Positions 5,715 to 49,650 of a DNA stretch of 64,000 nt are shown piece by piece. Both the position numbers and the translations under genes were made by a program. Position 1 is the stretch's first letter, and each line of letters starts with the position of its first letter. Source of the stretch: a virus (taxonomy: Duplodnaviria; Caudoviricetes); the IMG/VR virus record IMGVR_UViG_3300047375_000738; one strand, 5' to 3'. A model generated the notes under the pieces. That model did no database searches. It had not been told where the DNA came from and saw only the letters and a program-made list of their open reading frames with translations.

Positions 5715-6640
5715 GCAAATTCCGTATTTTAGATTATGATATCATTTATCTAAGTTATGACGAGCCAAATGCAGAAAAAAATTATGCAGATTTGTGTAGT
5801 AAAGTTCCTTGGGCTAAACGTGTGCATGGAGTCGAAGGCTCAGACGCTGCACACAAGGCTTGTGCCGAACTAAGCGAAACTGATCGCTTTATTACTATTG
5901 ATGGCGATAATATTGTTAATGCAGAGTTTCTTGGCAGAGAGTTTGATTTAGATTCACACGAAGATGCACATTGGAATAAGGCAATTAAGTTTGAAGACTG
6001 TGTAGTAAGTTGGAGTGCAAAAAACACTATCAACGGATTAATGTATGGCAATGGCGGTATTAAGTGTTGGCCTAAAGAAAAAGTGCTTAACATGCGCACA
6101 CATGAAAATGCAGACCCAAATAATCCACATGCACAAGTTGACTTTTGTTGGGATATGGAATATATCCAGATTAATCAGTGCCACAGTGAAATTATGAATA
6201 ATCATACACCACACCAAGCATGGCGTGCCGGATTTAGAGAAGGTGTTAAAATGGCACTTGATAGAGGCATGAAGCCTAGTGTAGATGCGTTTAAGAAAAA
6301 TCATTGGAAAAACTTACACCGATTGTATGTCTGGCTAATGATTGGCGCAGATGCAGAAAACGGACGTTGGGCAATATACGGTGCTAGAGAAGGCTTATAC
6401 AAAACAATGTGTACAGATTGGGACTTTGTAAATGTTCGTGACTTTGAATGGCTCAATCGGTATTGGGAATCGTTAGAAGTAACTGAAGAAAATCTAAATG
6501 AAACAATTGAAGAACTTGGAAGTATGTTAATTAACGAACTTGAAATTCCGATTGCCGAAGAATGTCTAAATGCACAGCAAAGTCATTTCTTTAAAACACT
6601 ATATCAAAATCCGTCAAGGATACCACGCAAAGGTCGATAA
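5711..6640 (+). CDS. GT-A (GT2-like) glycosyltransferase-like protein
   Basis: YDIIYLSYDEPNA...RVHGV...AH...FITIDGDN (DxD) and AWRAGFREG. Homologous to the C-terminal domain of 40327..42246. Confidence 0.6.
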   Translation: MSKFRILDYDIIYLSYDEPNAEKNYADLCSKVPWAKRVHGVEGSDAAHKACAELSETDRFITIDGDNIVNAEFLGREFDLDSHEDAHWNKAIKFEDCVVSWSAKNTINGLMYGNGGIKCWPKEKVLNMRTHENADPNNPHAQVDFCWDMEYIQINQCHSEIMNNHTPHQAWRAGFREGVKMALDRGMKPSVDAFKKNHWKNLHRLYVWLMIGADAENGRWAIYGAREGLYKTMCTDWDFVNVRDFEWLNRYWESLEVTEENLNETIEELGSMLINELEIPIAEECLNAQQSHFFKTLYQNPSRIPRKGR

Positions 6641-8025
6641 TGTCAAATCAAACAGATAGAGTAAAACACATTAATGATATTACTACTCGGCATTTTTCGC
6701 CGACTTTTTGTTTTGCAAAATGGTATCATACAACAATATATTTACAAACAGGTGAAACACATAGTTGTTATCATCCAGCACCACACAAGATCGATGTTGA
6801 CGAACTGTTAACCAATCCAAGTGCGTTACACAACACCAAACATAAAAAACAAGAACGCAAAGAGATGTTAGAAGGCAAGCAATGTGTTGGTTGTAACTAT
6901 TGCTGGAATATTGAAAATATGGGCGATGACTATATTAGTGATAGACACATTCGCAGTGGTAGTATCTATAACGAACAACGTTTGCAAGAAATTAAATTTA
7001 ATCCTTGGGACTTTAATGTAAATCCTGAGTATATTGAAGTTTCGTTTGGTAATGAGTGTAACTTCCGGTGTAGTTATTGTCATCCAAAAGCAAGCAGTCG
7101 CTTTCACCAAGAAATTAGACAACACGGTCCTTACGATATGGCAAAGAATCATAGATGCGATGTTGACTGGTTTAAAGTATATGAAGAAGACAGCAATCCA
7201 TATGTACGTGCATGGTGGAACTGGTGGCCTGAAGTTAGTAAAACACTAAACATTTTACGTGTTACAGGCGGTGAGCCTACGATGCAAAAAAGTACATATA
7301 GACTATTTGACGAACTTGAAAAAGAACCTAAGCCAAATCTTGAACTTAATGTAAACAGTAACTTTGGCGGCAAAGAACGTCAGCTGGCTAAGTTTACTGA
7401 TAGTGTGAACAGTTTGCTTACACAAAATAAAATTAAATCATTTAAGTTGTTTACAAGTTTAGACACATGGAACGAACGTGCTGAGTATATTAGAGACGGA
7501 CTTGATCTTAATGTGTTTGAACGCAACTTTGATTATTTTATGCAAAGCACAACAGCACCAGTAACATATATGATTACGTTTAGTTTGTTTAGTGTAACAA
7601 CATTTGAAACATTGCTAGAAAAAATATTAGAACAAAGACGTAAGTATAATAATGTAGATAGTGGACGTTGGCAGCGTATACACTTTGATACTCCTTATCT
7701 AAAAGAGCCTTTGCAGCACGATATTAATATTTTGCCTAAAGAAACGTATTTGCCGTACATGGAAAGTCATTTACAATTTATTAAAGATAACACCAAAGAA
7801 GGCAGTAAAGAACATTTTAGCGAAATGGAATATGAAAAGTTTCGCCGAGTAGTTGACTACATGAAAAATACAACTTATGATGTAAACAAAGTACGTGAAG
7901 GTCGCAAAGATTTTTGGAACTTTTTCAAGGAACATGATCGCAGACGCAATCTCGATTTTGAAAAAACATTTCCGGAAATGGCAGACTTCTTTGCGCTATG
8001 CAAGGAAGCAAATGATACCTTCTAA
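6640..8025 (+). CDS. Radical SAM protein with N-terminal twitch-like domain
   Basis: N-terminal FCFAKW..SCYH..CVGCNYC, CNFRCSYC, TGGEP, C-terminal DRRR..FPEM. Confidence 0.9.
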   Translation: MSNQTDRVKHINDITTRHFSPTFCFAKWYHTTIYLQTGETHSCYHPAPHKIDVDELLTNPSALHNTKHKKQERKEMLEGKQCVGCNYCWNIENMGDDYISDRHIRSGSIYNEQRLQEIKFNPWDFNVNPEYIEVSFGNECNFRCSYCHPKASSRFHQEIRQHGPYDMAKNHRCDVDWFKVYEEDSNPYVRAWWNWWPEVSKTLNILRVTGGEPTMQKSTYRLFDELEKEPKPNLELNVNSNFGGKERQLAKFTDSVNSLLTQNKIKSFKLFTSLDTWNERAEYIRDGLDLNVFERNFDYFMQSTTAPVTYMITFSLFSVTTFETLLEKILEQRRKYNNVDSGRWQRIHFDTPYLKEPLQHDINILPKETYLPYMESHLQFIKDNTKEGSKEHFSEMEYEKFRRVVDYMKNTTYDVNKVREGRKDFWNFFKEHDRRRNLDFEKTFPEMADFFALCKEANDTF

Positions 8026-9178
8026 AGATAATTCATATTGTTATTATCCTTTTAAACAACTTGCTATTAGTCATTGGAATAGCAAAGGTATTCAGTGTGT
8101 AAATCCTTGCTGCAATATGGCAAGTCCGTTGAACCCTGATCCGTTAAACACAGCAAAAGATATACACAATGATGTAGAGAAATTATTCGATCTACCGCAA
8201 CTGCAAAATATTCGTACACAAATGCTAAATGGAGAATATCCAAAGGCTTGCAATGGTTGCTATGAAGCAGAAAAGCACGGAACTAGTCCTAGACTAATGT
8301 TAGATACAAATGTAAACAATGAACTAGAATGGCTAGATATACACTTAGGTAATAAGTGCAATCTTAGATGTAGAATGTGTCATCCGGCATTGAGCAATCA
8401 ACTCAACAAAGATGCAGAAAAATTTAAACAAGATGGTTACAAATATTGGTGGGATAGTGTTCCTGATATTGCTCCGCATGATATTTCTGTGTTGTATCCT
8501 GTACTACACAAAATAACAAATATACGTGTCAGCGGTGGCGAGCCTTTGTTATCAAATGAATATTTAGAGTTGCTGGATTATTGTATAGAAAATAATCTAG
8601 CACATAATATTACTTTAGAACTACACACTAATGCTACAAAATTTAATAATGCTAATGTAGATAGATTAAGCAAGTTTAAACATGTAAATGTTACATTTAG
8701 TATTGACGGTGTACGTAAAATTTATGAATATGTGAGATACCCTTTTGCATTTCAAATATTAGAAAATAGCCTTAAGAATTTTTTTGACAAAGTAAAAAAA
8801 TATACAGCACAAATTAATTATGTAGTATCTATATATAATGTGTTAGATATACGCAACACACAGTATTGGGCAAAACAATATCCAATTAACAATTTTATAA
8901 TTACAAATGTTTTTCCTGCTAAACGTAATATTGATATATGTCATTTACCAATACCAATATTGCTTATGGCAAGAGAAATGATATTAGATACAGTTTATCA
9001 AACTGAAAATCTTGAAAACTACATAGTGCAATGCATGGAAGACAATAAGTACAATGACTACGATAAAGACAAATGGAAAGAAATTAAAGAAGAAGTAATG
9101 CAGTTTGATAAAAATAGAAATCAAAACTATCGAGATTATCTTAATTCTTATATTATTGATTGGTTGGACAAGATATGA
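8012..9178 (+). CDS. Radical SAM protein with N-terminal twitch domain
   Basis: Start reassigned to ATG 8012 (MIPSKDNSYC). YCYYPF..PCC..CNGC, CNLRCRMC, SGGEP. Confidence 0.9.
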   Translation: MIPSKDNSYCYYPFKQLAISHWNSKGIQCVNPCCNMASPLNPDPLNTAKDIHNDVEKLFDLPQLQNIRTQMLNGEYPKACNGCYEAEKHGTSPRLMLDTNVNNELEWLDIHLGNKCNLRCRMCHPALSNQLNKDAEKFKQDGYKYWWDSVPDIAPHDISVLYPVLHKITNIRVSGGEPLLSNEYLELLDYCIENNLAHNITLELHTNATKFNNANVDRLSKFKHVNVTFSIDGVRKIYEYVRYPFAFQILENSLKNFFDKVKKYTAQINYVVSIYNVLDIRNTQYWAKQYPINNFIITNVFPAKRNIDICHLPIPILLMAREMILDTVYQTENLENYIVQCMEDNKYNDYDKDKWKEIKEEVMQFDKNRNQNYRDYLNSYIIDWLDKI

Positions 9179-10392
9179 AGGAAGAACATTTAGGAAATGG
9201 AACGTTTTGCATGTTTCCTTGGCTACACTTAAATGTAACACCCAAGGGAGATGTATATCCGTGTTGTAGTAGCGACTATGTTGAACCTTTTGCTAATGTA
9301 AAAGACACAACATTAGAACAAGCATTTAATACTGAACGGATGAAACAGTTGCGACTCGATATGTTAGCTGGTCGTAAAAACGAAGCATGTACATTTTGTT
9401 ATAAACACGAAGAAAGTTCTCCTTACAGTTTTAGAAAATATAGTATTGAGAAATTTGCAGACAAGTACGAAGAATTAGTACCCTATACTAATCAAGACGG
9501 CAGCTTAGATAAATTTACAATGGCATATTACGATATACGCTTTAGTAACATTTGTAATTTTAAGTGTAGAACCTGTGGCAGTGAATTTAGTAGCAAGTGG
9601 GGACAAGAACACAAAGAACACGATGCGCCCCCTCCAGGATTTAAAGTTGTACAACATGCAGATAGTAGTGGCAAATTATTAGATCAAGTATTAGAACAGA
9701 TACCTAATATTGAATTAGCATACTTTGCTGGCGGCGAGCCACTTATTACAGACGAACACTATACAATACTCAATGAAATGATTGCTAATGGTAGTTGTAA
9801 AGATATTACATTACGCTACAATACAAACATGAGTAACTTTAGATACAAAAAATACGACATACTTGACATGTGGAGTAATTTTAAAGAAATTGAAGTTAGT
9901 GCTAGTTTAGATCACTTTGGTCCAAAGGCCGAATATATTCGCAACGGTACTCATTGGTTTACAGTAGAAAATAATTTACGTACAATTAGAGATGTTGATT
10001 TTATCAACTACCAATTCAATTGCGTATTGAGTAATTTAAATTATGTTACACTTGGTGACTTTTTTAGATATATGATTGATAAAGACTTATTACGTAAGCA
10101 CGATTACATTAGCATTTACCATTTGTTAAATCCTAGTTTTTACAGTGCGCAAAATCTTCCTTTAGAATTAAAAGAACAAGGCACACTTGGATTATTAAAA
10201 GTTATTAATGAAATTAAGGATGACTTTTGGTGTACACAGCATATACAAAATGCATTGAATTTTGCCAATAGCGATCATACCTGGGAACAAAACGGCAAAG
10301 AATTTATACATAATACTGTAAGAAGAGATAAAATACGAAATGAAAATTTTGTAGAAACATTTCCTGAACTGGCATCAATGATAAATGGATAA
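9175..10392 (+). CDS. Radical SAM protein with N-terminal twitch domain
   Basis: ATGA-coupled start 9175. FCMFPW..PCC..CTFC, CNFKCRTC, AGGEP, D..R..FPEL. Confidence 0.9.
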   Translation: MKEEHLGNGTFCMFPWLHLNVTPKGDVYPCCSSDYVEPFANVKDTTLEQAFNTERMKQLRLDMLAGRKNEACTFCYKHEESSPYSFRKYSIEKFADKYEELVPYTNQDGSLDKFTMAYYDIRFSNICNFKCRTCGSEFSSKWGQEHKEHDAPPPGFKVVQHADSSGKLLDQVLEQIPNIELAYFAGGEPLITDEHYTILNEMIANGSCKDITLRYNTNMSNFRYKKYDILDMWSNFKEIEVSASLDHFGPKAEYIRNGTHWFTVENNLRTIRDVDFINYQFNCVLSNLNYVTLGDFFRYMIDKDLLRKHDYISIYHLLNPSFYSAQNLPLELKEQGTLGLLKVINEIKDDFWCTQHIQNALNFANSDHTWEQNGKEFIHNTVRRDKIRNENFVETFPELASMING

Positions 10393-11668
10393 AGATAATT
10401 TACTAAAACGCAACAAAGCATTTTGTATTCTTCCGTGGATACATATGCACGCCTGGCCCGATGGCAGGGCAATGCCTTGCTGTATTGCGGATAGCGATCA
10501 GCCTTTTGGCAATGTTAAAGAAAATAGTATCAAAGAAGTTTGGAATAGTGACAAATACAAAGAACTACGTTTAGCAATGCTTAATGGTGAAAAACTAGAT
10601 TGTTGCAGACGTTGCTACGAACTCGAAGATAGTACTTACATCTGGACACTGCGTAAAAATCATAATCAGTGGTTCGGCGATAAACATTTTGATCTAGTTG
10701 AAAAAACAAACGCAGATGGCAGCATTGATGAAATGCGTATGGCGTATATGGATATACGATTTAGTAACATATGTAATATGAAGTGTAGAACATGTGGACC
10801 TGAATTGAGTAGTCTACACGCACAAGAACATGGCGAGCTATATGGAAAACATGAAGTTGCTAACATACTTAAAAATAATGGCAGTAATATTGTTAATGTA
10901 GCAAAGCACAAAGACTTTTGGAACGAACTACAGCAATACTTGCCAGATGTTGAAGAAGTATATTGGGCAGGCGGCGAGCCGCTTATTACAGACGAACATT
11001 ATAAAATATTAGATCATTGGATTGATATTGGTAAAACTGATGTGCGACTACGTTATACAACTAATTTTAGTAATCTAAGATTTAAACAAAAAAGCATTAT
11101 TGATTATTGGAAAGAGTTTCCAGATATTCAAGTTAGTGCAAGTTTAGATGCAATGGGTGCAAGAGCTGAGTTTATGCGGTTTGGCACAGTATGGGATACT
11201 GTTGAACGTAATAGACAAGAAATGCTTGAACACTTGCCTAATATTCATTTTGAACTAACACCAACAATAAGTATGTACAATGCTTGGAACTGGCCCGACT
11301 TCCATATGGATTGGGTTGAACGTGGATTGGTTGATATTGAAAATTGTAGATTAAACATGTTAACTGATCCAGATTTTATGCGTTTAGATAATATTCCAAA
11401 TGATTATAAGATTGAGTTACGTAGTAAATACATTGACTATAAAGCATGGGCATACGACAAAATTAAAGATCGCATAGCAAACAATCCAGCAGTAGTAAAA
11501 GATGTACTTGGTAAAATTGATAGTGTGATACAATTTATGAACACAGGCGAGTTAAACAAAGATAAATTAAAACAGTTCTTTGACAAAAATCATGGACTTG
11601 ATCAGCATCGTAAAGAAGACTTTTGGAGTACGTTTCCTGAACTAGAGTGGTTAAGAAAATATGTCTAA
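10385..11668 (+). CDS. Radical SAM protein with N-terminal twitch domain
   Basis: FCILPW..PCC..CRRC, CNMKCRTC, AGGEP. Close paralog of 9175..10392. Confidence 0.9.
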   Translation: MDKDNLLKRNKAFCILPWIHMHAWPDGRAMPCCIADSDQPFGNVKENSIKEVWNSDKYKELRLAMLNGEKLDCCRRCYELEDSTYIWTLRKNHNQWFGDKHFDLVEKTNADGSIDEMRMAYMDIRFSNICNMKCRTCGPELSSLHAQEHGELYGKHEVANILKNNGSNIVNVAKHKDFWNELQQYLPDVEEVYWAGGEPLITDEHYKILDHWIDIGKTDVRLRYTTNFSNLRFKQKSIIDYWKEFPDIQVSASLDAMGARAEFMRFGTVWDTVERNRQEMLEHLPNIHFELTPTISMYNAWNWPDFHMDWVERGLVDIENCRLNMLTDPDFMRLDNIPNDYKIELRSKYIDYKAWAYDKIKDRIANNPAVVKDVLGKIDSVIQFMNTGELNKDKLKQFFDKNHGLDQHRKEDFWSTFPELEWLRKYV

Positions 11669-12632
11669 CTTAACAAAAATTACTCCAATGGCAGAACCAT
11701 ATGCTACAATAACGTGGCAAGTAAACAACTTCTGTAATTTTCAATGTACATACTGCAATCCAGGTAATTGGGCAGGATCAAATCGTAACAACAGTAATCT
11801 TGATACATATATGAAAAATGTACGTGGCATATTTCAGCAGTATCAAGACAAAGGATACAAATACTTTAAGATATTTTACAGCGGCGGCGAACCTACACAC
11901 TGGGAAAACTTTATTCCTCTTACAGAATATTTAAAAGACGAATTAGGTGACAATCTTACAGTAGCAGTAAATACAAACTTATCACGTCCAGTAAGATATT
12001 GGGAAAAGCATTGTCACTTGTTTGACGATATTGTTGCTAGTTTTCATGTAGAATTTTGTAAGAAAGATCGTTATATTGAAAATGCACAATTTTTATGCAA
12101 CAAAGTTGACTATCTATGCACAAAGATGTTGATGCACGAAGAGCGCTTTTGGGAAGTAGTTGAATTTGGCAAACGTGTAAAAGCCGAAGTGCCTAATTAC
12201 AATTTAGAATGGACACCGTTGTTTGACGAAATGAGTGTTAATGCTGGTCCGTGGCAATACAAAGATCCTGATAAAGTAAAATTTTTAGAAGCTGCTCAGT
12301 TTGAAACTAAAATATCTATACCAAAGCCGTATAGACAAAACAAAGCAATTAGTAATAGCCATTATGATAACGGAACAATTGTGCCAACAAACAGCAACAC
12401 TATTATTGCTGATAGACAGAACTTCTTTACAGGATGGAAATGCTCTGTTGACGATGCATTGTTTATCAATCCAAGAGGAGAAATGTCAAGTGCAAGTTGC
12501 GGCGTTGGCAACACTCATGGAAATATTTTAGATAAAGACTTGACATTTGACATGAAACCTGTTATATGTAGTAAACAACACTGTCATTGCGGCACAGATA
12601 TTATTATACCAAAGGAACCAATTAATGCATAG
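11661..12632 (+). CDS. Radical SAM protein with C-terminal SPASM/twitch-like Cys cluster
   Basis: CNFQCTYC, SGGEP, GWKC..SC..ICSKQHCHCGTD. Confidence 0.9.
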   Translation: MSNLTKITPMAEPYATITWQVNNFCNFQCTYCNPGNWAGSNRNNSNLDTYMKNVRGIFQQYQDKGYKYFKIFYSGGEPTHWENFIPLTEYLKDELGDNLTVAVNTNLSRPVRYWEKHCHLFDDIVASFHVEFCKKDRYIENAQFLCNKVDYLCTKMLMHEERFWEVVEFGKRVKAEVPNYNLEWTPLFDEMSVNAGPWQYKDPDKVKFLEAAQFETKISIPKPYRQNKAISNSHYDNGTIVPTNSNTIIADRQNFFTGWKCSVDDALFINPRGEMSSASCGVGNTHGNILDKDLTFDMKPVICSKQHCHCGTDIIIPKEPINA

Positions 12633-14719: not shown

Positions 14720-15496
14720 ATGAACCTGTGTTTTAATAAAAACTATAATTTGTTAGTTGATAGACCTTTTGTAAATCAAACAGTAAATTTTTATTCTAGC
14801 GACGATCAAAAAACATTTAAATTTAATTGTAAAAAATTAAAAAACAAAGACTGGCAATATCACACAGAAACTATTGAATATAAGTTTAACAGTCTTGGTC
14901 ATCGCACAAAAGAAATAGAAAGTCTTGATAAAGATTTTTTACTAACATTCGGTTGTAGTTATACTGAGGGCGTAGGGTTAAATGTAGAGGATATATGGGC
15001 AAGTATGCTTGCAACAAATTTAAAATTAGATTTGTATAATTGTGCTAAACAATCAACTAGCCCTGAAGCGCAGTATATAAATGCATTGTTATGGAAAAGA
15101 AATAATTTACCAAAGCCTAAGCTAGTAGTCTGTCAATGGCCACAAATTGGCAGGAAAATGTTTGGTTTTACAAAGCAAGATGATATTGAAATAGCAGACA
15201 TGAGTGAAACTAAAACGCACGATGGAAGATGGTGGGAAAGACGCTATATTGTTGATAATGGTGAACGTGATAAATCTGTTATCCAGCAGATCGAAGGATT
15301 TAATTTAGTATGGGAAAGTTTGGGAGTACCAGTAATTAATTTTTCTTGGGAACCTATCGAGATTCCGCTGTTTACTAAGATACACGAAATCTCTCCAAAT
15401 ACTGGAAATCACGAAGCCCGAGACAGAGAACATGACGGGGTTAACTTTCATATCGAAACACAAAAGTATTTACAAACTTTATGTTTCTCTAATTAA
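14720..15496 (+). CDS. SGNH-like protein
   Basis: FGCSYTEG, QWP, C-terminal DREHDG (DxxH). AGGAG SD. Confidence 0.6.
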   Translation: MNLCFNKNYNLLVDRPFVNQTVNFYSSDDQKTFKFNCKKLKNKDWQYHTETIEYKFNSLGHRTKEIESLDKDFLLTFGCSYTEGVGLNVEDIWASMLATNLKLDLYNCAKQSTSPEAQYINALLWKRNNLPKPKLVVCQWPQIGRKMFGFTKQDDIEIADMSETKTHDGRWWERRYIVDNGERDKSVIQQIEGFNLVWESLGVPVINFSWEPIEIPLFTKIHEISPNTGNHEARDREHDGVNFHIETQKYLQTLCFSN

Positions 15497-16483
15497 ATCT
15501 AATGTACAACAATGGAAACACCCGCCGAGTGTACGTGCATGACGTAGTGGTAGCATAGCACATTCAATACCATGTGCTTCTAGTGCTTTACGTGTAGGTT
15601 CTTGGTGTTCCTCAAGTGCTACTAAATTAGGATTGACACTAAACAGGTTTACATTCCATGTCCAAATACTACTATTGCACAATCCTGGATAATGTCCAGC
15701 GTCTACTGCGTCTGGTGCCCAGATAATATCCCAGTCTTTGAACGGTCCTGGGAGATCGTCCTTGCTTTTGATACGGCTCGGATTAGCAAGCAATAGCCCT
15801 TCACGTAAAAAAGCAATAGTGCTGTCAATGTGCATATAACTATACACATCTTCTAGCGTATGTACTTTGAAGTTTCCAGGTTCGTCAAAACTACTAGCAG
15901 GTTTATTCATCCAGTCTTGCAAGTATGTAGCACCTGCTTTGTTTCCACTATTACTAACCAAATACATAATATCATCGTTTGCACGAATAGCATTTGCTGC
16001 ATCAAAACACGGAGCAGTTTCTGTTAGTGCTAGTTTGTCAGGATCGCCTACACACGACTCGTCATATAATCCAGTACGATCCGTACGATGTCCTACCTCA
16101 ATCGGTGCAACTCCAGGCATCAAGTGTTTCCATTCTTCGGCTCTTGCTTCAAGTGCCATAGGCGCAGCTAATGCTCGTTTGCCGTGTACAAACACAGTGT
16201 CTCTTGGACAGTAGTTGTAATACTTTACATCCTCTGTACGCTGCGGCCTTACAACCTCAACACTTTCGCCTTCGAGAAACTTTACAAATGTTTCAAGATC
16301 TTCGTTGCTTTCGTCAACTACTTGTTGTGGATACAATCCAGGAACAACATCGCTTACATCTTTTCTATCAGCGTAGTTGATAACTCTTAGACTTTCGTCC
16401 ATTTCGGGTATACGGCAGTAATCAGCAACGCCGACACAAACCTTCTTTAGTGGATCCCACTCATTGGTGCTATAAATACTCAT
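15479..16483 (-). CDS. Amidinotransferase (glycine / inosamine-phosphate amidinotransferase family)
   Basis: NEWDPLKKV, CPRD, PCFDAA (catalytic Asp), MHIDST (His), GGCFHCCTLDL (Cys). Confidence 0.9.
   Translation of the reverse strand: MSIYSTNEWDPLKKVCVGVADYCRIPEMDESLRVINYADRKDVSDVVPGLYPQQVVDESNEDLETFVKFLEGESVEVVRPQRTEDVKYYNYCPRDTVFVHGKRALAAPMALEARAEEWKHLMPGVAPIEVGHRTDRTGLYDESCVGDPDKLALTETAPCFDAANAIRANDDIMYLVSNSGNKAGATYLQDWMNKPASSFDEPGNFKVHTLEDVYSYMHIDSTIAFLREGLLLANPSRIKSKDDLPGPFKDWDIIWAPDAVDAGHYPGLCNSSIWTWNVNLFSVNPNLVALEEHQEPTRKALEAHGIECAMLPLRHARTLGGCFHCCTLDLIRET
16471..16478 (+). promoter_or_regulatory. TATAAATA late box inside the 5' end of the opposite-strand gene
   Basis: Exact TATAAATA, followed by AAGGA and ATG 16503. 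The intergenic gap is only 19 bp. Confidence 0.5.
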
Positions 16484-18310: not shown

Positions 18311-19122
18311 GATTATTTGCATTTGGTTGTAGTTTTACAAAGTATTGTTGGCCAACATGGGCTGATATAATGGCAGTTGATCTTGGGTGTGAATATTATA
18401 ACTTAGGTATTGCTGGATTAGGTAATGTTGGAATTATGAGTCGAATGGTCGAAGCTGACTTAAAATGGAAATTTACACCCGAAGATAAAATAATTGTCTT
18501 ATGGTCAGGGTTTGAGCGTGAAGATCGAATAAACACGTTTGGCGAATGGGACAACTTTGGTAGTATCTTTCATGCACAACGAGGAAAAAGAGACTGGCAT
18601 GCAAAAAATTGGAACTTAGGAAACGACATTGTAAGAAATTCAACTGCAATTGCTGCTGCAAATAAAATGTACGGCGACAAAATACTTTGGCAGGCACATA
18701 GTTTTGATCCAATTAATGCTGAGCACGATTTAAAAGAAATTCCGTTAACTGACAACGAATATAATGTTGCTATGAATCTTGCAAAACTATATAATCCTTA
18801 TCTAAAAGATATTACAACTTGTTTATGGGATGATTATAATCCAGCATTTGGAAATTTAAATGATATTCATCCTGACACACGAAAGCATTTTAAATTATTA
18901 ATTGAGCATGTGTATAAACCGTTAGACATGAAAATGAAAAGATCAACCAAACAAACGTTTATGGATTTACAGCAAGAAATTACAGACAAATGTATACGTG
19001 AAAATATTAAAAATAATCAGCAAGTGCAAAATTGGATATATGACTTAATTAATACAAATGCAGACTACAACAGAATAGCCGATGTATTTAAACACTATTC
19101 TTTAAGCGATGATATACATTAG
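18307..19122 (+). CDS. SGNH-like protein, close paralog of 16503..17231
   Basis: FGCSFT, NLGIAGLGN, identical KFTPEDKII segment, REDR, DIHPD. Confidence 0.65.
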   Translation: MRLFAFGCSFTKYCWPTWADIMAVDLGCEYYNLGIAGLGNVGIMSRMVEADLKWKFTPEDKIIVLWSGFEREDRINTFGEWDNFGSIFHAQRGKRDWHAKNWNLGNDIVRNSTAIAAANKMYGDKILWQAHSFDPINAEHDLKEIPLTDNEYNVAMNLAKLYNPYLKDITTCLWDDYNPAFGNLNDIHPDTRKHFKLLIEHVYKPLDMKMKRSTKQTFMDLQQEITDKCIRENIKNNQQVQNWIYDLINTNADYNRIADVFKHYSLSDDIH

Positions 19123-19675
19123 GATAGTCTTCCCAAGTCCACATCTTTGCAGGAGTAGCAATTGCATTAGGCAATTTATCTAATCCTAACTGTGCAGTTT
19201 CGGGTGTCATGTAGTAATGATATCCTATACTATTAATATCTTGATCCATCCAACTACAATTACGATGCCTACCATCGTATCCTAATTTTATAAGTGCATC
19301 TCTGTCTTCTTTGCTATCAAGCAGTATTACACCACCTCGCCCTAAACTTAAATGTTTTCTAAATTGAAAACTCAAGCACATATAGCTGCCTGATACATAA
19401 CTGTTTGGTTTCCATAATACTGCTGCATCGTAAATATTGTTACCAAGATAATAATATTCAGACCATTTAGCATTAGTCCATTGAACATCGATGCCAAGTT
19501 TCTTTCCTGTCATTGGAATACTTAGATATGTGTGCTGCGGCACAGTTATACTTTTAGCATTTTTATAACGCAAACATAGTTCAACAGCATGAGTACAGCA
19601 ATCAGTGCTTACAGCATAAGGTGCACCAAAGAATTCTGCTATTTGTTTTTCAAAGTTATCTACTATATCGAACAT
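19088..19675 (-). CDS. Compact DegT/DnrJ/EryC1/StrS PLP aminotransferase-like protein
   Basis: FEKQIAEFFG..YAV, YDAA, SFQFRKHL (PLP Lys), GYHYYM. Start reassigned to ATG 19675. 195 aa. Confidence 0.8.
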   Translation of the reverse strand: MFDIVDNFEKQIAEFFGAPYAVSTDCCTHAVELCLRYKNAKSITVPQHTYLSIPMTGKKLGIDVQWTNAKWSEYYYLGNNIYDAAVLWKPNSYVSGSYMCLSFQFRKHLSLGRGGVILLDSKEDRDALIKLGYDGRHRNCSWMDQDINSIGYHYYMTPETAQLGLDKLPNAIATPAKMWTWEDYPNVYHRLKNSV

Positions 19676-19679
19676 AATG

Positions 19680-19685
19680 TATTTA
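19680..19685 (-). promoter_or_regulatory. TAAATA box 4 nt before ATG
   Basis: TAAATA-CATT-ATG(19675). Confidence 0.5.
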
Positions 19686-19721
19686 ACCACCAGATCTAAT
19701 AACTATATACTTAATGGATTG

Positions 19722-19727
19722 TAAATA
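19722..19727 (+). promoter_or_regulatory. TAAATA late-type box
   Basis: Followed by AGGAG (19733-19737) and ATG 19744. Confidence 0.45.
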
Positions 19728-19743
19728 CTGTAAGGAGTTAGAC

Positions 19744-20655
19744 ATGAAAATATTATTAACAGGATCAAGTGGATTTATAGGACAACATTTGTTGCCACGA
19801 CTACAAGCAATTGGAGAAGTACACGAATTAAAAACAGACTTAACACATCACACTGGTATTCAGCAAGAAGTAAAAGAAGTTAATCCAGATATTGTAGTTC
19901 ATTTAGCAGCACGTACAGAAGTGCAAAAAAGTTTTTATGAACAAGTTAGTTTTAGTGAAGTAAACTATGTTGGTACAGTTAATCTTATTGAAGCATGTAG
20001 ACAACTTAACACTTTACCGTATTTTGTGTTTGCAAGTACAATGGAAGTTTATGGCTGGCAACCTATTTCGGACGAAGTAGAACAAACCGGAACTTATAAA
20101 GACAGCGTTGCTTTTGACGAATATACTCAGCCAAATCCAAATGCTCCTTATGCTGTTGCTAAGTATGGATGTGAAAAGTACTTAGAGTATGCTGGCAGAG
20201 CATACGGTCTTCCGTGGGCAAGTTTTAGACAAACTAATAGTTACGGACGTAAAGACAACGACTTTTTTATTACAGAACAGATTATTGCACAGATGTTAAA
20301 AGGAGATACTTGTAATCTAGGCTATGCAGAGCCATATAGAAACTTTATTTACATCAGTGACTTGCTAGATGCGTGGATGGCTGTAATTGAAAATAGAGAT
20401 GCATGTAAAGGCAACTTCTATACTATTGGACCAGACGACCCACGTAAGATTAAAGATTGTGCTCATTATATCCAACAGCAATTAGGGTGGAATGGAACTA
20501 TCAACTGGGATACAAAAGATCCACGACATGGCGAAATTTGGTGGCTTAATAGTAATCACAACTTGCTTACAAGTAAGACTGGGTGGAAGCCTAAAGTGTC
20601 GTACGAAGAAGGTGTCGATAGGACAATTAGCCATTGGAAAACAATCATTACCTAA
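19744..20655 (+). CDS. NAD-dependent NDP-sugar epimerase/dehydratase (extended SDR)
   Basis: LTGSSGFIG, HLAA, ASTMEVYG, YAVAK (YxxxK), NFIYISD. Start at ATG 19744 with SD. Confidence 0.9.
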   Translation: MKILLTGSSGFIGQHLLPRLQAIGEVHELKTDLTHHTGIQQEVKEVNPDIVVHLAARTEVQKSFYEQVSFSEVNYVGTVNLIEACRQLNTLPYFVFASTMEVYGWQPISDEVEQTGTYKDSVAFDEYTQPNPNAPYAVAKYGCEKYLEYAGRAYGLPWASFRQTNSYGRKDNDFFITEQIIAQMLKGDTCNLGYAEPYRNFIYISDLLDAWMAVIENRDACKGNFYTIGPDDPRKIKDCAHYIQQQLGWNGTINWDTKDPRHGEIWWLNSNHNLLTSKTGWKPKVSYEEGVDRTISHWKTIIT

Positions 20656-22641: not shown

Positions 22642-23237
22642 TAGATTTAGATGATGTAGCATTTTGGATGGACGCAGTACGTAACAGTGAAAATCACTAT
22701 GGCGTATTAGAAAGTTTCTGGAAAGGTCAACTAAAAAGTAAAGTATGGCTTGTAGAGCACCTGTATAATTCACACTGGCGTCAACAGAACATTGTAATTT
22801 TTGGTGGCTGGAACGGGGTATTATCTAGTTTATTATTTAATAGCAAACTACAAATAAATGACATACGTAGTATTGATATAGATTCAACTTGCGAAGAAGT
22901 TGCTAACATGATTTGCAAGAGACAAGAAATTGAAGGCAAATTTAATGCTGTCACTTGTGATATGTGTACATACGAATATGAATATGCACCAGACTTAGTA
23001 ATTAATACTAGTACCGAACATATTACACAAGAGCAATATGATACTTGGTTAGATCGTGTGCCTGTAGGAACTGCTATTGCAATACAAAATAATAATTATG
23101 TTGATATACCAGACCATATACGTTGTTATAATACTCTCGAAGAGTTTGAAAAAACTTGCGGACTAAGTAAAGTATATACTAGAGACACATTAGAGCTTCC
23201 CTTGTATAATAGATTTTTGTTAATAGGACGTAAATGA
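22635..23237 (+). CDS. Class I SAM-dependent methyltransferase-like protein
   Basis: Motif I VIFGGWNG, acidic SIDID, INTSTEH. Paralog of the C-terminus of 42233..43198. Confidence 0.6.
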   Translation: MLVDLDDVAFWMDAVRNSENHYGVLESFWKGQLKSKVWLVEHLYNSHWRQQNIVIFGGWNGVLSSLLFNSKLQINDIRSIDIDSTCEEVANMICKRQEIEGKFNAVTCDMCTYEYEYAPDLVINTSTEHITQEQYDTWLDRVPVGTAIAIQNNNYVDIPDHIRCYNTLEEFEKTCGLSKVYTRDTLELPLYNRFLLIGRK

Positions 23238-30474: not shown

Positions 30475-31361
30475 TTCGTTATATTTACATCCGCTGCACA
30501 AGTACACCAATCTCTTGAACAAATTACTGCTACTTCGGGTCTTTCAAATGTATCTTTGTATATATTACCTAAACTACCGCCTACTCTACACGTAGCACGA
30601 TGTACATCTCCGTCCCAATTAATCATTAAACTTTCAATTCCTGCTTTACATTGCCATCCTTTAAACATATTTAATTTGTTTTTAAGTAAGTCATTTGTAT
30701 GTACTAAATCTTTACTATCAACAAGTGTGTTTGCTTTTGCTGTAGTTTGCACACTTTTAATCCACTCAAGGTCTTCTAGGTTATAGCGCATATCGTCAAA
30801 CCAGTCATGTCGTTCTGTCCAGCGTATACGTCTGAGACTAAATGGAATATTGTGTTCGATTAAAATTCTAGTTGCAAGTTTCACTTCATCCATGTAATCG
30901 TGGTGTGCCATAACCATAACATGGTAGTCTTTTGGGTGTTTACCACCACCTAATGTTCCTGCTAGAATTCTAATTGTTTCAACACGGTCATACCATTGCT
31001 TATCCTCAAAGTGTAAACTAAGTACAAGATAATTAACATCTAAATCTTGATAATATTCTGGCTTTCTTGTAATGTTTGTAGTTACACTCAACCAGTTTAT
31101 TTTAGGTCTAGCATAATTTACTAGTTCTTCAAACTGTGGGTGTACACACGGCTCGCCACCTGTGAAACTTATACGTACATTTTCAATTTCTGCAAGTGTA
31201 TCAACCGTTTTATACAGTGTTGATAAGTCTTTGTGACTGCTAAAATTGTCGTGTATTTCCGCAGGACAATATGTGCAATCTAAATTGCAACGCTTGCCTA
31301 AGTTCCACTCAACTTTAACACTATCTCTATAGTGCGGCCATCTATTTTCTACGCTAAACAT
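30465..31361 (-). CDS. Radical SAM protein, C-terminal SPASM/twitch-like
   Basis: CNLDCTYC, TGGEP, GWQCKAG..C..ICSRDWCTCAAD. Confidence 0.9.
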   Translation of the reverse strand: MFSVENRWPHYRDSVKVEWNLGKRCNLDCTYCPAEIHDNFSSHKDLSTLYKTVDTLAEIENVRISFTGGEPCVHPQFEELVNYARPKINWLSVTTNITRKPEYYQDLDVNYLVLSLHFEDKQWYDRVETIRILAGTLGGGKHPKDYHVMVMAHHDYMDEVKLATRILIEHNIPFSLRRIRWTERHDWFDDMRYNLEDLEWIKSVQTTAKANTLVDSKDLVHTNDLLKNKLNMFKGWQCKAGIESLMINWDGDVHRATCRVGGSLGNIYKDTFERPEVAVICSRDWCTCAADVNITKWK

Positions 31362-40253: not shown

Positions 40254-40270
40254 GGCACTCTCCTATACAT

Positions 40271-40278
40271 TATTTATA
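40271..40278 (-). promoter_or_regulatory. T4-type late promoter TATAAATA
   Basis: Exact box, followed by AGGAGAG and ATG 40253. Confidence 0.65.
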
Positions 40279-40291
40279 GGTTTTTTTGGAC

Positions 40292-40320
40292 TTGACATAC
40301 CGTTTAGAATCATATATAAT
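40292..40320 (+). promoter_or_regulatory. Consensus sigma70 promoter, leaderless
   Basis: TTGACA, 17 nt, TATAAT, then 6 nt to ATG 40327. Confidence 0.8.
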
Positions 40321-40326
40321 GTAATT

Positions 40327-45196: not shown

Positions 45197-45206
45197 GTAT
45201 TATATA

Positions 45207-45758
45207 ATGGAAAATCTAACTACCTATAAAAGTAATAAAAAATTTTTAGAAGAAAGGTACAATCTAATAGCCAGTGGCACTAATAAAAAAGTTTATTACA
45301 ACGGTAATAATAATATTGTTTTCAAACTATTTGAAAATCCTAATATATTGGAAGGCGAAATAGTAAGATACCAAATACTAATTGAGAACAATATAAACTT
45401 TTTTACACCAAAATTAAAAATTGTTAATAAATTTGTTTGTGTAAGTCAATTTGCTGCACCAATAAAATTAAAAGATAACCACCGAGTTGCTTACAATTAT
45501 AATATAGCTATTATGGATCCTCAACTTGTATTTCTCAAAACAGATCCAATTAAAAACACAATGTGGAAGAATGTTTGCAATGAAACAGTAGATAGTAAAG
45601 GACTTACTCCTATCTATAATTGGGGAATTAGGAATAACAAAATATTGCTTTTAGATATAGAAACAATTTTGCATAATAAGGTAGTTGATTTTTTCAAGGA
45701 TAGTCAAATTATTGATAAATTTAGAGAAGTAATGCGAGCAGATCAATACTATGAATAA
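45207..45758 (+). CDS. Kinase-like hypothetical protein (tentative)
   Basis: IASGTNKKVY..VFKL and NWG..ILLLDIE. Very AT-rich. Start reassigned to ATG 45207. Confidence 0.4.
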   Translation: MENLTTYKSNKKFLEERYNLIASGTNKKVYYNGNNNIVFKLFENPNILEGEIVRYQILIENNINFFTPKLKIVNKFVCVSQFAAPIKLKDNHRVAYNYNIAIMDPQLVFLKTDPIKNTMWKNVCNETVDSKGLTPIYNWGIRNNKILLLDIETILHNKVVDFFKDSQIIDKFREVMRADQYYE

Positions 45759-47157
45759 TAAAGTAAGTGATACATTTTGTTTATTACCCTGGGTGCATCT
45801 AAGCACAAGACCAGATGGTAGTATGCGAGTATGTTGTACAGCAAATGCAAGTTCAGTTGGCCCTACCAACGATAAAGCACACGGCGGGCAAGTAGGTATT
45901 CTTAAAGATGATGAAGGAAGACCTAACAACTTAAACGTTAGTGATTTTCAAACAGCATGGAATAGCGAGTATATGAAAAATGTTCGCAAGCAAATGCTCA
46001 ACGGAGAAAAGCCGCCAAGTTGCTTGAAGTGCTACAAAGAAGAAGCTGCTGGACATCGCAGCAAACGCATGTGGGAAACACACTATTGGAGTGAGCGTGT
46101 AGATGTAGATAAAATACTACAAGAAACAAACGAGGACGGCAGTGTTCCGCCTAACTTAGCATATATTGATTTGCGGTTTGGCACAAAGTGTCAGTTAGCA
46201 TGTGTAATGTGTAGTCCACATGACAGTAGTGGCTGGATAAAGGATTATAAAAAGATTTTTCCTGAAGTAAAAAATGAATCACTCAAAGAGATTATGCAGT
46301 GGGACAACAAAGGCAGCACTAATGGCAGTAGTTATAATTGGCACAAGCAAAATCCTGTATTCTGGCAACAGTTTTATGAACAGATGCCTAGTATGCAACA
46401 AATTTATTTTGCTGGTGGTGAAAGTCTTATTATTGAAGAACACTATGAAATACTTGAACATGCAATTAAAATGGGTTATGCAAAAGATCTTGAACTGCGA
46501 TATAACTCAAACGGAGTTGAGTGGAGAGAGGATTTATTTGATCTGTGGAAAGAATTCAAATTAGTACGATTCCACTATTCAATAGACAGCATTAAAGAGA
46601 TGAACGATTACATTCGTTATCCAAGTGAATGGAAACGACAAGAAGAAGTATTTCACATTCTTGATACACAAACTACAGATAATGTTGAAATCACTATAGC
46701 GTGTGCAGTACAAGCACTTAATGTATATTACTTGCCAGACTTTATTCAATGGAAGCTAGAGAAGAAGTTTAAAAAGATTAACATGTGGCCATTTGGCGCA
46801 GGCGGTATTAGTCAGCACTTTGTATATTGGCCTGCACATCTAAATGTCAAGAGCTTGCCTGCAGACTTCAAAGCTAAGTGCAGAGCAAAATACGAAGCAT
46901 GGTATCCCTGGTGGGAAGCTAATTGGGAGCTAGGTATTCCGGATTGGCACAAAGGTAAAGTAGAGTACGAACAGTGGCGAAGTGCTGAATATGGTATTAA
47001 AAGACTAAATGGTATTCTCAGTTTTATGGAAAGCGAAGACTGGAGCCAACGCTTGCCCGAGATGAAAGAGTTTTTAGGATTATGTGATCGGCAACGTGGA
47101 AACAGTTTCGATGAAACATTTCCAGAGATGAAAGATATTTTTAAGGATATAGAATGA
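45751..47157 (+). CDS. Radical SAM protein with N-terminal twitch domain, close paralog of 23234..24613
   Basis: FCLLPWVHLSTRPDG..CCTANAS, CQLACVMCSPHDSS, AGGES. Confidence 0.9.
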   Translation: MNNKVSDTFCLLPWVHLSTRPDGSMRVCCTANASSVGPTNDKAHGGQVGILKDDEGRPNNLNVSDFQTAWNSEYMKNVRKQMLNGEKPPSCLKCYKEEAAGHRSKRMWETHYWSERVDVDKILQETNEDGSVPPNLAYIDLRFGTKCQLACVMCSPHDSSGWIKDYKKIFPEVKNESLKEIMQWDNKGSTNGSSYNWHKQNPVFWQQFYEQMPSMQQIYFAGGESLIIEEHYEILEHAIKMGYAKDLELRYNSNGVEWREDLFDLWKEFKLVRFHYSIDSIKEMNDYIRYPSEWKRQEEVFHILDTQTTDNVEITIACAVQALNVYYLPDFIQWKLEKKFKKINMWPFGAGGISQHFVYWPAHLNVKSLPADFKAKCRAKYEAWYPWWEANWELGIPDWHKGKVEYEQWRSAEYGIKRLNGILSFMESEDWSQRLPEMKEFLGLCDRQRGNSFDETFPEMKDIFKDIE

Positions 47158-48500
47158 GTAAATGTACTTTTTGTCCGCTGCCGTGGAATAGCATAAATCT
47201 ACGTAATAATGGTGACCTAAGGATTTGCTGTAATACAAATAGTTACAGTCCGCAGCGTGGTATTATGCGCAAAGAAAATGGCACTCCATACAATGCTGGC
47301 AAAGACGATTGGAACGAAGCAAGAAATGCTGAATTACTCAAAGAAGTGCGAGCTAGTATGTTAAAAGGAGAATGGCATCCTGAATGCGAACGTTGTAGAC
47401 AAGAAGAAAAAAACGGAATACGCAGCCGCCGAGAGTACGAAAACGAAGACTGGGGTAAGTGGTTTGGAGATGTTAGTCTAGAAAAAATGGCACCTATCAC
47501 ACAAGAAGACGGAACAATAGATACAAGCAAACAAGATATAGAGTTTATTGATATAAGATACGGAAACTTTTGCAACCTTAAATGTAGAATGTGCGGTCCT
47601 ACTGACAGTCACACATGGTATGACGACTTTGTTAAACTACATGGTAGAACACATTACAAAGATACTCACGATAAAATTCAATTAACAAAAAATGCAAAAG
47701 GTCGTTGGAGCACAGATCAATATGATTGGTTTCAAAACAGCAATAGATATTGGGACAACTTTGAAAAGTATGCACCAAACAGCAAAAAAATATACATTGT
47801 TGGTGGAGAACCTTTAATTATTGATGAACACACTGAAAGTTTAGAAAGACTTGTTGCAAGTGGCAAGTCAAAAAATGTAAGATTGGAGTACAACACAAAT
47901 CTAACCATGGTACCTAATAAACTTGTACACTTATGGGAGCAGTTTAAACAGGTAAGAATTGGAGTAAGCATTGATGGCGTGGGAGATGTATTTGACTATC
48001 AAAGAACTCCAGCTAAATGGAGTGCTGTATATCGCAATATGCAAAAGCTAGAAGAAGCAGATATAAATCTCAAAGCATGGTATGCATTTACAGTAACACC
48101 TTATAATGTGTTTCATTTTCCTGAATTTATGAAATGGAAATTAGAAGATAGCGGATTAGATAGTTACAATCCTATTACTGGTCCTCGTCCTATTGTAACA
48201 CATCATATGTGTCATAGTCCTAAGTATTTTAATGTAAAAGTTTTACCACCTGAGCTAAAGGCACAAGTTTCAGAATATTATAAAATCTTTAGAGAATGGA
48301 TTAGAACTACTGAATACAGCGACCATATAAAACAAAACTTTGAAAAACTACTTGACGGAGTTGAAAAATTTATGTTAAGTGAAGACTACAGTGAAGAATG
48401 GTTAGGTCATTTTGTTGATCAAACAAAAAAACTAGACGAAATACGAAATCAAAATGTATTAGATATTGTACCACAATACAAGGATTTATTTAATGGATAG
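47154..48500 (+). CDS. Radical SAM protein with N-terminal twitch domain
   Basis: FCPLPW..ICC..CERC, CNLKCRMC, VGGEP. Confidence 0.9.
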   Translation: MSKCTFCPLPWNSINLRNNGDLRICCNTNSYSPQRGIMRKENGTPYNAGKDDWNEARNAELLKEVRASMLKGEWHPECERCRQEEKNGIRSRREYENEDWGKWFGDVSLEKMAPITQEDGTIDTSKQDIEFIDIRYGNFCNLKCRMCGPTDSHTWYDDFVKLHGRTHYKDTHDKIQLTKNAKGRWSTDQYDWFQNSNRYWDNFEKYAPNSKKIYIVGGEPLIIDEHTESLERLVASGKSKNVRLEYNTNLTMVPNKLVHLWEQFKQVRIGVSIDGVGDVFDYQRTPAKWSAVYRNMQKLEEADINLKAWYAFTVTPYNVFHFPEFMKWKLEDSGLDSYNPITGPRPIVTHHMCHSPKYFNVKVLPPELKAQVSEYYKIFREWIRTTEYSDHIKQNFEKLLDGVEKFMLSEDYSEEWLGHFVDQTKKLDEIRNQNVLDIVPQYKDLFNG

Positions 48501-49650
48501 CTTCTGTCCTTATATCGACAAGGCATTAAGATTTGAGTTTAGCACAAATCAAGACAATGATCTAGTTTTTAGGACTAGACCTTGTTGTCATATGCATGGA
48601 GGAAAGTTTGATAACCAGTATAAGAAATGGCAAGTTTGTAATACATGGCAAGACTTAGAATCTCACGACAATAGATTATATTTTTTAGATTGGCAAAAAA
48701 ATACTGACAAATTGCACGATGCATGTCATCCTTGTATAGAAGTAGAAAAACATAACCCTACAAAAAGTCCTAGATTTATTTTTCCTAAAGAAACTGTGCT
48801 AGACTATCATATTTTAGATGTTGTAGTTGGCAACACTTGTAATTTAGCCTGTCCTTTTTGTGCTCCAAATGTTAGTAGCCTTATAGAAAAAATTACATCG
48901 GGTTATAAAGATAGATCTAAACTTCCTGGTAAATGGAGTCACGATCCTGAAGTAAATGGCAATCCTTCTAAGGTTGCTAAAGTAGTTGCAGATTTTTTAA
49001 AAAATAGGAATATAGGCGAACTTAAAATTATTGGCGGCGAACCTCTATTGGCAGAAAACTGGACAGAAATAGGCAAAGTTATAGATCAAGGATTGTGTTC
49101 TGACACAACACTTGTATTTACTACAAATGGTACAGTAATGAATGAAAAGATTATCAAAAATTTAAAACAGGTAAAAGATTCTAAAGTAACAGTGAGCATA
49201 GATAGTATAGGGTCTAACTATGACTTTATCCGTTGGCCTTATAAGTACAACAAGGTGCAACAAAATGTAGATTACCTTATCGATCAAAAACCAAATAGCA
49301 CATGGGTAAATGTTGATGGCTTAGTCACTATAATTAATTTTGAATTTTTACCTGATATTATAGAAGAGTTTAAACGTTGGCCGAGTTTTAGTTTTATGTT
49401 TGATTTAAAACCAGATGGTAGTGAACTTGATTATAAGGTTTTATCAAAGGATATCATTAATCAAGTTTATAAAAATATAAATTTTGATAATGTAAAAAAA
49501 CAATTAGAATTTACATTAGATAACTACGACGATCTAAATATGAGTTATTTAAAATCCAAGACTAAAAATAGTTTAGAATGGTTTTTAAAACAACGCAGAA
49601 TGGATAAAACTGTCTTAGGAGAAAATACTTTAAAGTATTTAGGCATGTAG
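48493..49650 (+). CDS. Radical SAM protein with N-terminal twitch domain (divergent)
   Basis: Start ATG 48493. FCPY..PCC..CHPC, CNLACPFC, IGGEP. Confidence 0.85.
   Translation: MDSFCPYIDKALRFEFSTNQDNDLVFRTRPCCHMHGGKFDNQYKKWQVCNTWQDLESHDNRLYFLDWQKNTDKLHDACHPCIEVEKHNPTKSPRFIFPKETVLDYHILDVVVGNTCNLACPFCAPNVSSLIEKITSGYKDRSKLPGKWSHDPEVNGNPSKVAKVVADFLKNRNIGELKIIGGEPLLAENWTEIGKVIDQGLCSDTTLVFTTNGTVMNEKIIKNLKQVKDSKVTVSIDSIGSNYDFIRWPYKYNKVQQNVDYLIDQKPNSTWVNVDGLVTIINFEFLPDIIEEFKRWPSFSFMFDLKPDGSELDYKVLSKDIINQVYKNINFDNVKKQLEFTLDNYDDLNMSYLKSKTKNSLEWFLKQRRMDKTVLGENTLKYLGM

Follow-up and report, generated by a model that had tools for sequence, protein, structure and literature searches.

Most radical S-adenosylmethionine (SAM) enzymes with a SPASM or twitch domain modify proteins or peptides, and to our knowledge the domain order of the family NF033640 is reversed relative to every enzyme of that group that has been studied. 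The archetypal twitch enzyme is BtrN (2-deoxy-scyllo-inosamine dehydrogenase, butirosin, PDB 4M7T), in which a twitch domain with one four-Cys auxiliary set follows the barrel. Here we describe nine genes of the N-terminal twitch (N-twitch) type in a stretch of 64,000 nucleotides, called the window below, from a virus of the Caudoviricetes (IMG/VR record IMGVR_UViG_3300047375_000738). Their products have a twitch domain homologous to that of BtrN, placed before the barrel, and a C-terminal helical domain that BtrN lacks. Aminosugar or aminocyclitol genes, among them one for a DegT-type aminotransferase, are found around both BtrN and the phage array. The nearest solved core folds are those of CteB (5WGG), anSMEcpe (4K36), SkfB (6EFN) and BlsE (7VOB), with Z of 11.4-12.2 and sequence identities of 13-17%; the auxiliary domains of these enzymes, unlike those of the phage proteins, are C-terminal.

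Two described or deposited gene settings resemble the locus as a whole. Pelagimyophages, which are marine T4-like phages, carry radical SAM cassettes, glycosyltransferase (GT) family 8 genes and Asp/Asn hydroxylases by their tail-fibre genes, in a 'host recognition cluster' (PMC7029224). The N-terminal twitch architecture and paralog counts are not described in that paper, and the present phage is a jumbo relative, not a pelagimyophage. A cluster in the predatory bacterium Bdellovibrio sp. HCB2-146 has, like the island of the phage, N-twitch and other radical SAM genes, GT2 genes, nucleoside diphosphate (NDP)-sugar enzymes and a GNAT protein, but it is chromosomal and lacks the phage-specific GT2-like and GT8-like families.

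All nine open reading frames (ORFs) of the window, which are named here by their start positions, translate without stops from the starts given in the initial annotation of this DNA. Four N-terminal Cys are invariant in the nine-copy alignment (C10, C28, C91 and C94, P0007 numbering), and the radical SAM core follows them with C147/C151/C154 and GGE at 222-224 in the same numbering; a small number of other residues are also invariant. The spacing of the N-terminal Cys, C-x13-G-x4-C(C) ... CxxC, is that of the first half of the SPASM motif. The CxxxCxxC sequences are listed by gene order in Table 1; in seven of the nine copies Met or Thr stands at the position that is usually aromatic. The D..R...FPE(L/M) tail is intact in five copies (6640, 9175, 10385, 23234 and 45751) and degenerate in the other four. 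The initial annotation had placed an auxiliary Cys motif ahead of the core in nine ORFs, all of which were found where it put them; its count of the Met/Thr replacements was exact, and its remark that most copies end in the FPE tail agrees with the five intact tails. The motif that it wrote, CxxPW/F..CC..CxxC, holds for the four invariant Cys and fails at the second Cys of the pair, which is variable, the 6640 copy, for example, having a single Cys.

NCBIfam already lists this architecture as NF033640 (N_Twi_rSAM, 'twitch domain-containing radical SAM protein'), with a curated cut-off of 170 bits. Eight of the nine copies match this model end to end with 229.9-421.9 bits. The 48493 copy is the most divergent; it reaches 134.5 bits, under the cut-off, and still has the four N-terminal Cys. 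An N-terminal twitch family of unknown function had been invoked in the initial annotation, and it corresponds to this curated model. In the literature on NF033640 no paper testing any member was found, nor one dedicated to the N-terminal twitch family or to Bdellovibrio radical SAM arrays. NF033640, a large family, is an annotation model, membership of which names an architecture and not a function. The window adds another example and a cleaner evolutionary reading, and no new type of system.

Pfam gives the same order of domains, with PF13186 (SPASM) at residues ~8-99 and PF04055 (Radical_SAM) behind it. PF13186 is above its cut-off in five copies and below it, at 17.4 bits, in the 47154 copy; the 6640 and 8012 copies have no Pfam SPASM match and the same four Cys nonetheless. 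The twitch domain lies at residues ~10-100 and the core starts at ~120-150, so the former is not C-terminal as it is in twitch enzymes of the BtrN type. Positions 6-74 of the family profile match the C-terminal twitch of BtrN at residues 186-257 (E 2e-5). A profile built from 100 diverse members has as its invariant residues the four Cys of the twitch domain, R62, the Cys of the core, GGE, N227, S253, D255, R265 and P329, and the tail residues D406, R409, P418 and E419 are at least 90% conserved. The usual aromatic position is occupied in 222 family representatives by T (64), Y (54), M (44), S (35), I (13), G (8) and F (4). The non-aromatic core residue and the FPE tail are traits of the whole family and not peculiar to this phage. 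A second auxiliary set, CxxCx5Cx3C, is absent from the nine copies and from the 100 diverse members, in which just four N-terminal Cys are invariant.

The core of the family profile matches viperin (the best match in the PDB by sequence, E 5e-8), SkfB, GDGT-MAS, MoaA and BlsE. Viperin and MoaA, together with the presence of several invariant Arg, Asp and Glu residues, would be in keeping with a chemistry of free nucleotides, in which modified nucleotides would serve DNA modification or interference with the host. This reading is very unlikely. The viperin model NF038283 gives a best score of 37.9 bits among the nine copies against a cut-off of 180, there are no genes for DNA modification or nucleotide metabolism in the island, and viperins and MoaA do not have an N-terminal twitch domain.

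An AlphaFold2 model of the 10385 copy has a predicted local distance difference test (pLDDT) value of 95.7. Its core (residues ~118-390) is nearest to CteB, BlsE, anSME, SkfB and MoaA, with Z of 11-12, and its full-length architecture is unmatched by any solved chain (template modelling (TM) score 0.3-0.37). The nine proteins are radical SAM enzymes in which a true twitch domain has been moved to the N-terminus, giving a predicted two-cluster architecture. They consist of three parts: the N-terminal twitch domain, a barrel of the SPASM/twitch radical SAM clade that bears CxxxCxxC and GGE, and a C-terminal four-helix domain with the D..R...FPE tail. To judge from their sequence, the four N-terminal Cys should ligate one fully coordinated auxiliary [4Fe-4S] cluster.

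Variants of the architecture occur as well. A tenth relative of ~300 residues with CDLTCDGC lies ~21 kb past the right end of the window (G000:C1:37927-38889, plus strand); it scores 170.0 bits with NF033640, exactly the cut-off, and is without the C-terminal helical domain. In two IMG/VR contigs two N-twitch units are fused in one ORF of ~820 residues (L129:7944-10430 and L132:7980-10445), and an ESM Atlas cluster of the fused double enzyme, 851 residues long, matches the 10385 model at a TM score of 0.91.

The relationships of the copies were examined in a FastTree tree of 222 representatives and an IQ-TREE tree of 78 sequences. In both, the window copies fall in separate, well-supported subtype clades, at least seven separate placements being needed, and in most of these clades there are also copies of other viral contigs or of Bdellovibrionota. 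When the nine were forced into a single clade, the log-likelihood loss was 1324 and the approximately unbiased (AU) test gave p 2.96e-7. The 6640 clade also contains viral, Bdellovibrio HCB2-146 and UBA6144 copies, and the 6640 protein is 41-42% identical to the products of genes in two Bdellovibrionota genomes. The 23234 copy is sister to the 45751 copy plus a copy of Bdellovibrio HCB2-146; the 45751 copy itself shares 57-59% identity with a gene that the same isolate carries on a contig of 2.2 Mb, and it has 2906 homologous protein clusters at E <= 1e-10. The nearest relative of the 32599(-) copy is a chromosomal copy from Bdellovibrionia (31-34% identity), and the 48493 copy forms the longest branch in the tree.

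In the tree the phage copies are interspersed with bacterial ones, so their diversification did not take place in this phage. The nine copies, with pairwise identities of 22-45% in the alignment, are intact, ancient and individually conserved subtypes, not local duplicates. The word 'expansion' in the initial annotation is therefore misleading, and a lineage-specific growth of paralogs in the phage was rejected on the AU result and the number of placements. The proposal of the initial annotation that paralogs have diversified to different sites or substrates fits their age and individual conservation and is contradicted if the phage is taken as the place of diversification. The set would have been inherited or exchanged as ready-made subtypes, which other phages and Bdellovibrionota also carry.

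The distribution of the family was followed with a related-locus search seeded with a three-sequence alignment of N-twitch copies and with peptide patterns. With near-identical patterns, IMG/VR yielded at least 531 confirmed matches and 185,579 GTDB species genomes yielded 59, the latter mostly in Bdellovibrionota, with some in Flavobacteriales. Each of 79 viral loci fetched has 2-7 N-twitch copies within 17 kb, and cellular loci have 1-8. By fold, the nearest ESM Atlas clusters are 97-100% viral. Family carriers make up 79 of 301 sampled Bdellovibrionota species genomes versus 3 of 301 in Bacteroidota. A Bdellovibrionia genome of 4.5 Mb has 19 copies over the cut-off, 13 of them inside ~30 kb; there are 7 copies in the isolate Bdellovibrio sp. 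HCB2-146, 8 in a metagenome-assembled genome (MAG) of Bacteriovoracaceae and 4 in a 333-kb phage that is 92% complete. One 8-copy bacterial array is chromosomal, because it stands beside rplU, rpmA, obg and rsfS.

Just 19 of 50,697 deposited phage genome records match, namely Vibrio phages (the KVP40 group, K566, VS1/VS2 and others), Ralstonia phage RsoM2USA and one marine single-virus record. NF033640 confirms as true family members gene 202 of RsoM2USA, at 305 bits, and a pair of K566 genes, at 202 and 193 bits; the KVP40 group gives distant matches only. No deposited phage was matched by window positions 40000-64000 in a megablast search. In metagenomes, phages of the present type form a rich reservoir, but bacterial chromosomes are just as much a home of the family, and in predators related to Bdellovibrio its expansion is no smaller than in the phage. 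The suggestion that phages are a main reservoir is thus borne out by the IMG/VR and Atlas figures and limited by the Bdellovibrionota carriers and the few deposited phages. The initial annotation had set against that suggestion the prospect of homologs lying mostly on cellular chromosomes, and in part this is the case, in more than a quarter of the Bdellovibrionota genomes and with up to 19 copies in one of them. In three studies, marine metatranscriptome libraries contain short contigs identical or nearly so to the 5711-12632 array, for which carry-over of DNA is possible. A 3.5-kb contig (L042) of a 'Thermoplasmata archaeon' MAG has genes 46-67% identical to those at 23234, 28413, 29413 and 30465 of the window; the contig is most probably a piece of a related phage that was misbinned into the archaeal MAG.

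The window corresponds to positions 59925-123924, read on the minus strand, of a viral record of 170,115 bp. Also on this contig are a T4-type portal gene (366 bits) and the first part of a gp23-type capsid gene, and the portal is nearest to those of the jumbo phages Phosso, Atu_ph07 and PA5oct (51-54% identity). The source belongs to the T4 superfamily and is a marine jumbo myovirus. Immediately upstream of the window are genes of tail, tail-collar and tail-fibre type and that of a virion structural protein of 4589 residues (G000:C1:128955-142721, minus strand; PHROG 10938, 1091 bits). The 4589-residue protein is followed by three proteins that have a common N-terminal module and C-termini of tail, tail-collar and tail-fibre type. 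The island starts directly behind these and extends over more than 60 kb. GT-like families stand beside 2-7 N-twitch copies in 76 of 77 related viral loci. The neighbouring genes of the arrays overlap by 4-14 bases, so that translation is coupled within each of the two tandem blocks (6640-12632 and 45751-49650).

Comparable gene content is found in some bacteria. The cluster of Bdellovibrio sp. HCB2-146 (contig JBLEQP010000001, ~1.858-1.895 Mb) has six N-twitch genes, other radical SAM genes, five GT2 genes, a UDP-glucose/GDP-mannose dehydrogenase, an epimerase/dehydratase, a protein of the fatty-acid-hydroxylase type and a GNAT protein. It contains homologs of at least 10 window genes (29-59% identity), the amidinotransferase and the DegT-like protein among them. 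In the 13-copy cluster of Bdellovibrionia there are four homologs of the 50346 protein and two of an Asp/Asn-hydroxylase-like protein, with a UDP-sugar pyrophosphorylase at the flank. A linkage to fibre genes in bacteria was considered and dropped: a Peptidase_S74 fibre gene stands by the cluster only in HCB2-146, and four other N-twitch-rich genomes gave no match. A short form in the Bacteroidota, represented by a single copy of 355 residues in Marinigracilibium pacificum (L145:9042-11068, 351 bits), overlaps the end of a gene for a pyridoxal phosphate-dependent (PALP) enzyme, just behind polA. This context is unlike that of the arrays and suggests that the Bacteroidota subfamily has a separate function.

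The most likely role of the phage enzymes is the radical editing of sugars or aminocyclitols, to which we give a probability of about one half, because the N-twitch genes stand among sugar-handling genes in the phage. Each subtype would cleave SAM to yield a 5'-deoxyadenosyl radical, and this would take a hydrogen atom from a single site on a sugar, a nucleotide-sugar or an aminocyclitol unit. An electron may then pass to the auxiliary cluster, as has been proposed for BtrN, with formation of a keto or otherwise rearranged sugar. By analogy with the proposals for BtrN and anSME, a fully Cys-ligated auxiliary cluster of the kind predicted would suit electron transfer better than ligation of the substrate. 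The neighbouring proteins could then transaminate (DegT-like), amidinate (StrB1-like), methylate, acylate or hydroxylate the product, presumably in some such order, and GT2-, GT8- and possibly GT10-like transferases would attach it to the virion or to the host envelope. Given the DegT-like and StrB1-like neighbours, the simplest scheme would be radical oxidation of a hydroxyl to a ketone, amination, amidination and glycosyl transfer.

Several points weigh against sugar editing. The structural neighbours CteB, anSME and SkfB are mostly modifiers of peptides or proteins. The halogenase, the AMP-binding enzyme, the nitroreductases and the three Asp/Asn-hydroxylase-like proteins of the window fit a peptide or small-molecule product equally well, and the GT10 assignment is a weak lead. 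There are no recognisable sugar genes near the 8-copy array beside the ribosomal genes or near a 2-copy Halobacteriovoraceae locus, and a search of limited sensitivity found a GT2 match within ~8 kb in just 3 of 15 multi-copy cellular loci. The link to sugars is good for the phages and for some bacteria, and is not universal.

The same structural neighbours, with SuiB, would be expected of protein or peptide maturases, the subtypes of which would install a cross-link, an epimerisation or an oxidation of the formylglycine type on a virion protein, such as a fibre, or on a ribosomal peptide. The position of the island directly behind the tail-fibre genes, the bacterial arrays without sugar genes and the Asp/Asn beta-hydroxylase-like proteins of the window and of the Bdellovibrionia cluster would all suit such enzymes. 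Maturation is nevertheless an unlikely role, since no conserved small ORF was found with the arrays, and the small neighbours in two bacterial loci are without homologs in the other loci. CHxS-repeat/RGRR and serine-leader motifs were not found in the window, Pfam and NCBIfam gave no peptide-binding domain of the RRE type, and the conserved partners in all but one of the 77 viral loci are glycosyltransferase-like.

The presence of a StrB1-type inosamine amidinotransferase and a DegT-like aminotransferase, and a twitch domain nearest to that of BtrN, also bear on a third reading, according to which the product would be a free small molecule, a metabolite like an aminoglycoside or aminocyclitol, and the N-twitch enzymes would act in its tailoring as BtrN does. 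A tryptophan halogenase, the AMP-binding enzyme, an aldehyde dehydrogenase, the GNAT protein and the nitroreductases would fit such a product. A matching gene trio in a cyanophage, made up of a DegT-family AHBA_syn protein, an inosamine amidinotransferase and a radical SAM maturase, has been termed antibiotic genes (PMC12801897). We consider a free metabolite quite improbable: genes for a cyclitol synthase, an exporter or resistance were not recognised, both the abundance of GT-like genes and the site behind the tail fibres favour a polymer or glycoconjugate, and the homologous bacterial cluster has its five GT2 genes.

The coordinates of the N-twitch genes and of the principal genes around them are given in Table 1.

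Table 1. N-twitch radical SAM genes and other annotated genes of the window (aa, amino acids; scores in bits are for NF033640 unless another model is named).
Feature	Coordinates	Strand	Observations
N-twitch radical SAM paralog 1	6640..8025	+	461 aa, CNFRCSYC, FPEM tail; 299.3 bits
N-twitch radical SAM paralog 2	8012..9178	+	388 aa, CNLRCRMC, no FPE tail; 229.9 bits
N-twitch radical SAM paralog 3	9175..10392	+	405 aa, CNFKCRTC, FPEL tail; 377 bits; PF13186 12-75, PF04055 122-290
N-twitch radical SAM paralog 4 (modelled copy)	10385..11668	+	427 aa, CNMKCRTC, FPEL tail; 393 bits
N-twitch radical SAM paralog 5	23234..24613	+	459 aa, CNIKCVMC, FPEL tail; 395.7 bits
N-twitch radical SAM paralog 6	31349..32599	-	416 aa, CNLKCRMC; 316.4 bits
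N-twitch radical SAM paralog 7	45751..47157	+	468 aa, CQLACVMC, FPEM tail; 421.9 bits
N-twitch radical SAM paralog 8	47154..48500	+	448 aa, CNLKCRMC, VPQY tail; 371.8 bits
Divergent ninth relative	48493..49650	+	385 aa, CNLACPFC; 134.5 bits
GT8 (glycogenin)-like glycosyltransferase	4300..5142	+	profile against glycogenin chains E 2.6e-4; homologs in 56 viral loci
GT2-like protein, head of the four-gene array, coupled	5711..6640	+	nearest Atlas clusters 'Glycosyltransferase 2-like', score 0.98
Radical SAM gene without twitch, overlaps array end	11661..12632	+	PF04055; homologs in 58 viral and 8 cellular loci
StrB1 (inosamine-phosphate amidinotransferase) homolog	15479..16483	-	phmmer against 1BWD E 5e-52, full length
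Short DegT/DnrJ/EryC1-type aminotransferase-like protein	19088..19690	-	PF01041; 51% identical homolog in Bdellovibrio cluster
NAD-dependent NDP-sugar epimerase/dehydratase	19714..20655	+	PF01370 132 bits, PF16363 126 bits
Accessory protein, C-terminal half class-I methyltransferase-like	50346..51668	+	model residues 219-417 against CheR and other methyltransferases Z 7-10; whole-model pLDDT only 56
Eleven radical SAM genes without twitch	11661-12632, 24610-26551, 28413-31361, 44117-45196, 53246-55782, 60334-63611		eight short and three long, including the 11661 gene above; one with a weak B12-binding-domain match

The window has 20 radical SAM genes in all: the nine N-twitch copies and eleven genes that lack a twitch domain, eight of them short and three long; one of the long genes has a weak match to a B12-binding domain. 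Several of the twitch-less genes have homologs of 44-59% identity in the HCB2-146 cluster. Paralog 2 is found in only part of the related phage contigs. Homologs of the 5711 GT2-like protein occur in 70 of the 79 viral loci, and a domain paralogous to it makes up residues 478-694 of the 702-residue product of 40138-42246. The StrB1 homolog was missed by Pfam at E 1e-3; it has homologs inside both Bdellovibrionota clusters examined, that of HCB2-146 being 40% identical. The remaining recognised genes of the window include those for the three Asp/Asn-hydroxylase-like proteins, an AMP-binding enzyme, two nitroreductases, the aldehyde dehydrogenase and the GNAT protein.

Pfam and PHROGs gave nothing for most ORFs of the island, and PDB profile and phmmer searches were empty for the 5711, 20634 and 50346 families and for 42230 and 26511. 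The tryptophan halogenase (223 bits) adjoins a short AMP-binding enzyme (34742-37122, minus strand); both are unusual in phages, and neither has a homolog among the related loci fetched. A phage-only family has four paralogs with a TEK-type motif (13317-14666 on the minus strand, 17228-18310, 20634-21572 and 21565-22641), for which the Atlas gives a weak lead to GT10 fucosyltransferases. A second pair of paralogs lies at 16503-17231 and 18307-19122.

A wider picture, which is doubtful at present, would have modular radical oxidases of the BtrN type act with DegT, StrB1 and private glycosyltransferases to build hypermodified amino or guanidino sugars, as a toolkit exchanged by jumbo phages and predatory Bdellovibrionota. 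It would decorate the structures of attack, fibres or virion in the one and the predator surface in the other, and so affect recognition or protection of prey. The density of radical SAM genes is very high in these two kinds of bacterial predator, with 20 genes in 64 kb here and up to 19 copies of the family in one Bdellovibrionia genome. Cultured carriers make the family testable, namely Ralstonia phage RsoM2USA, Vibrio phage K566 and Bdellovibrio sp. HCB2-146, with the KVP40 group related by its distant matches only. One solved reaction would open a block of unknown radical chemistry, and the same solution would help explain the large hypervariable islands that abundant marine phages carry behind their tail-fibre genes.

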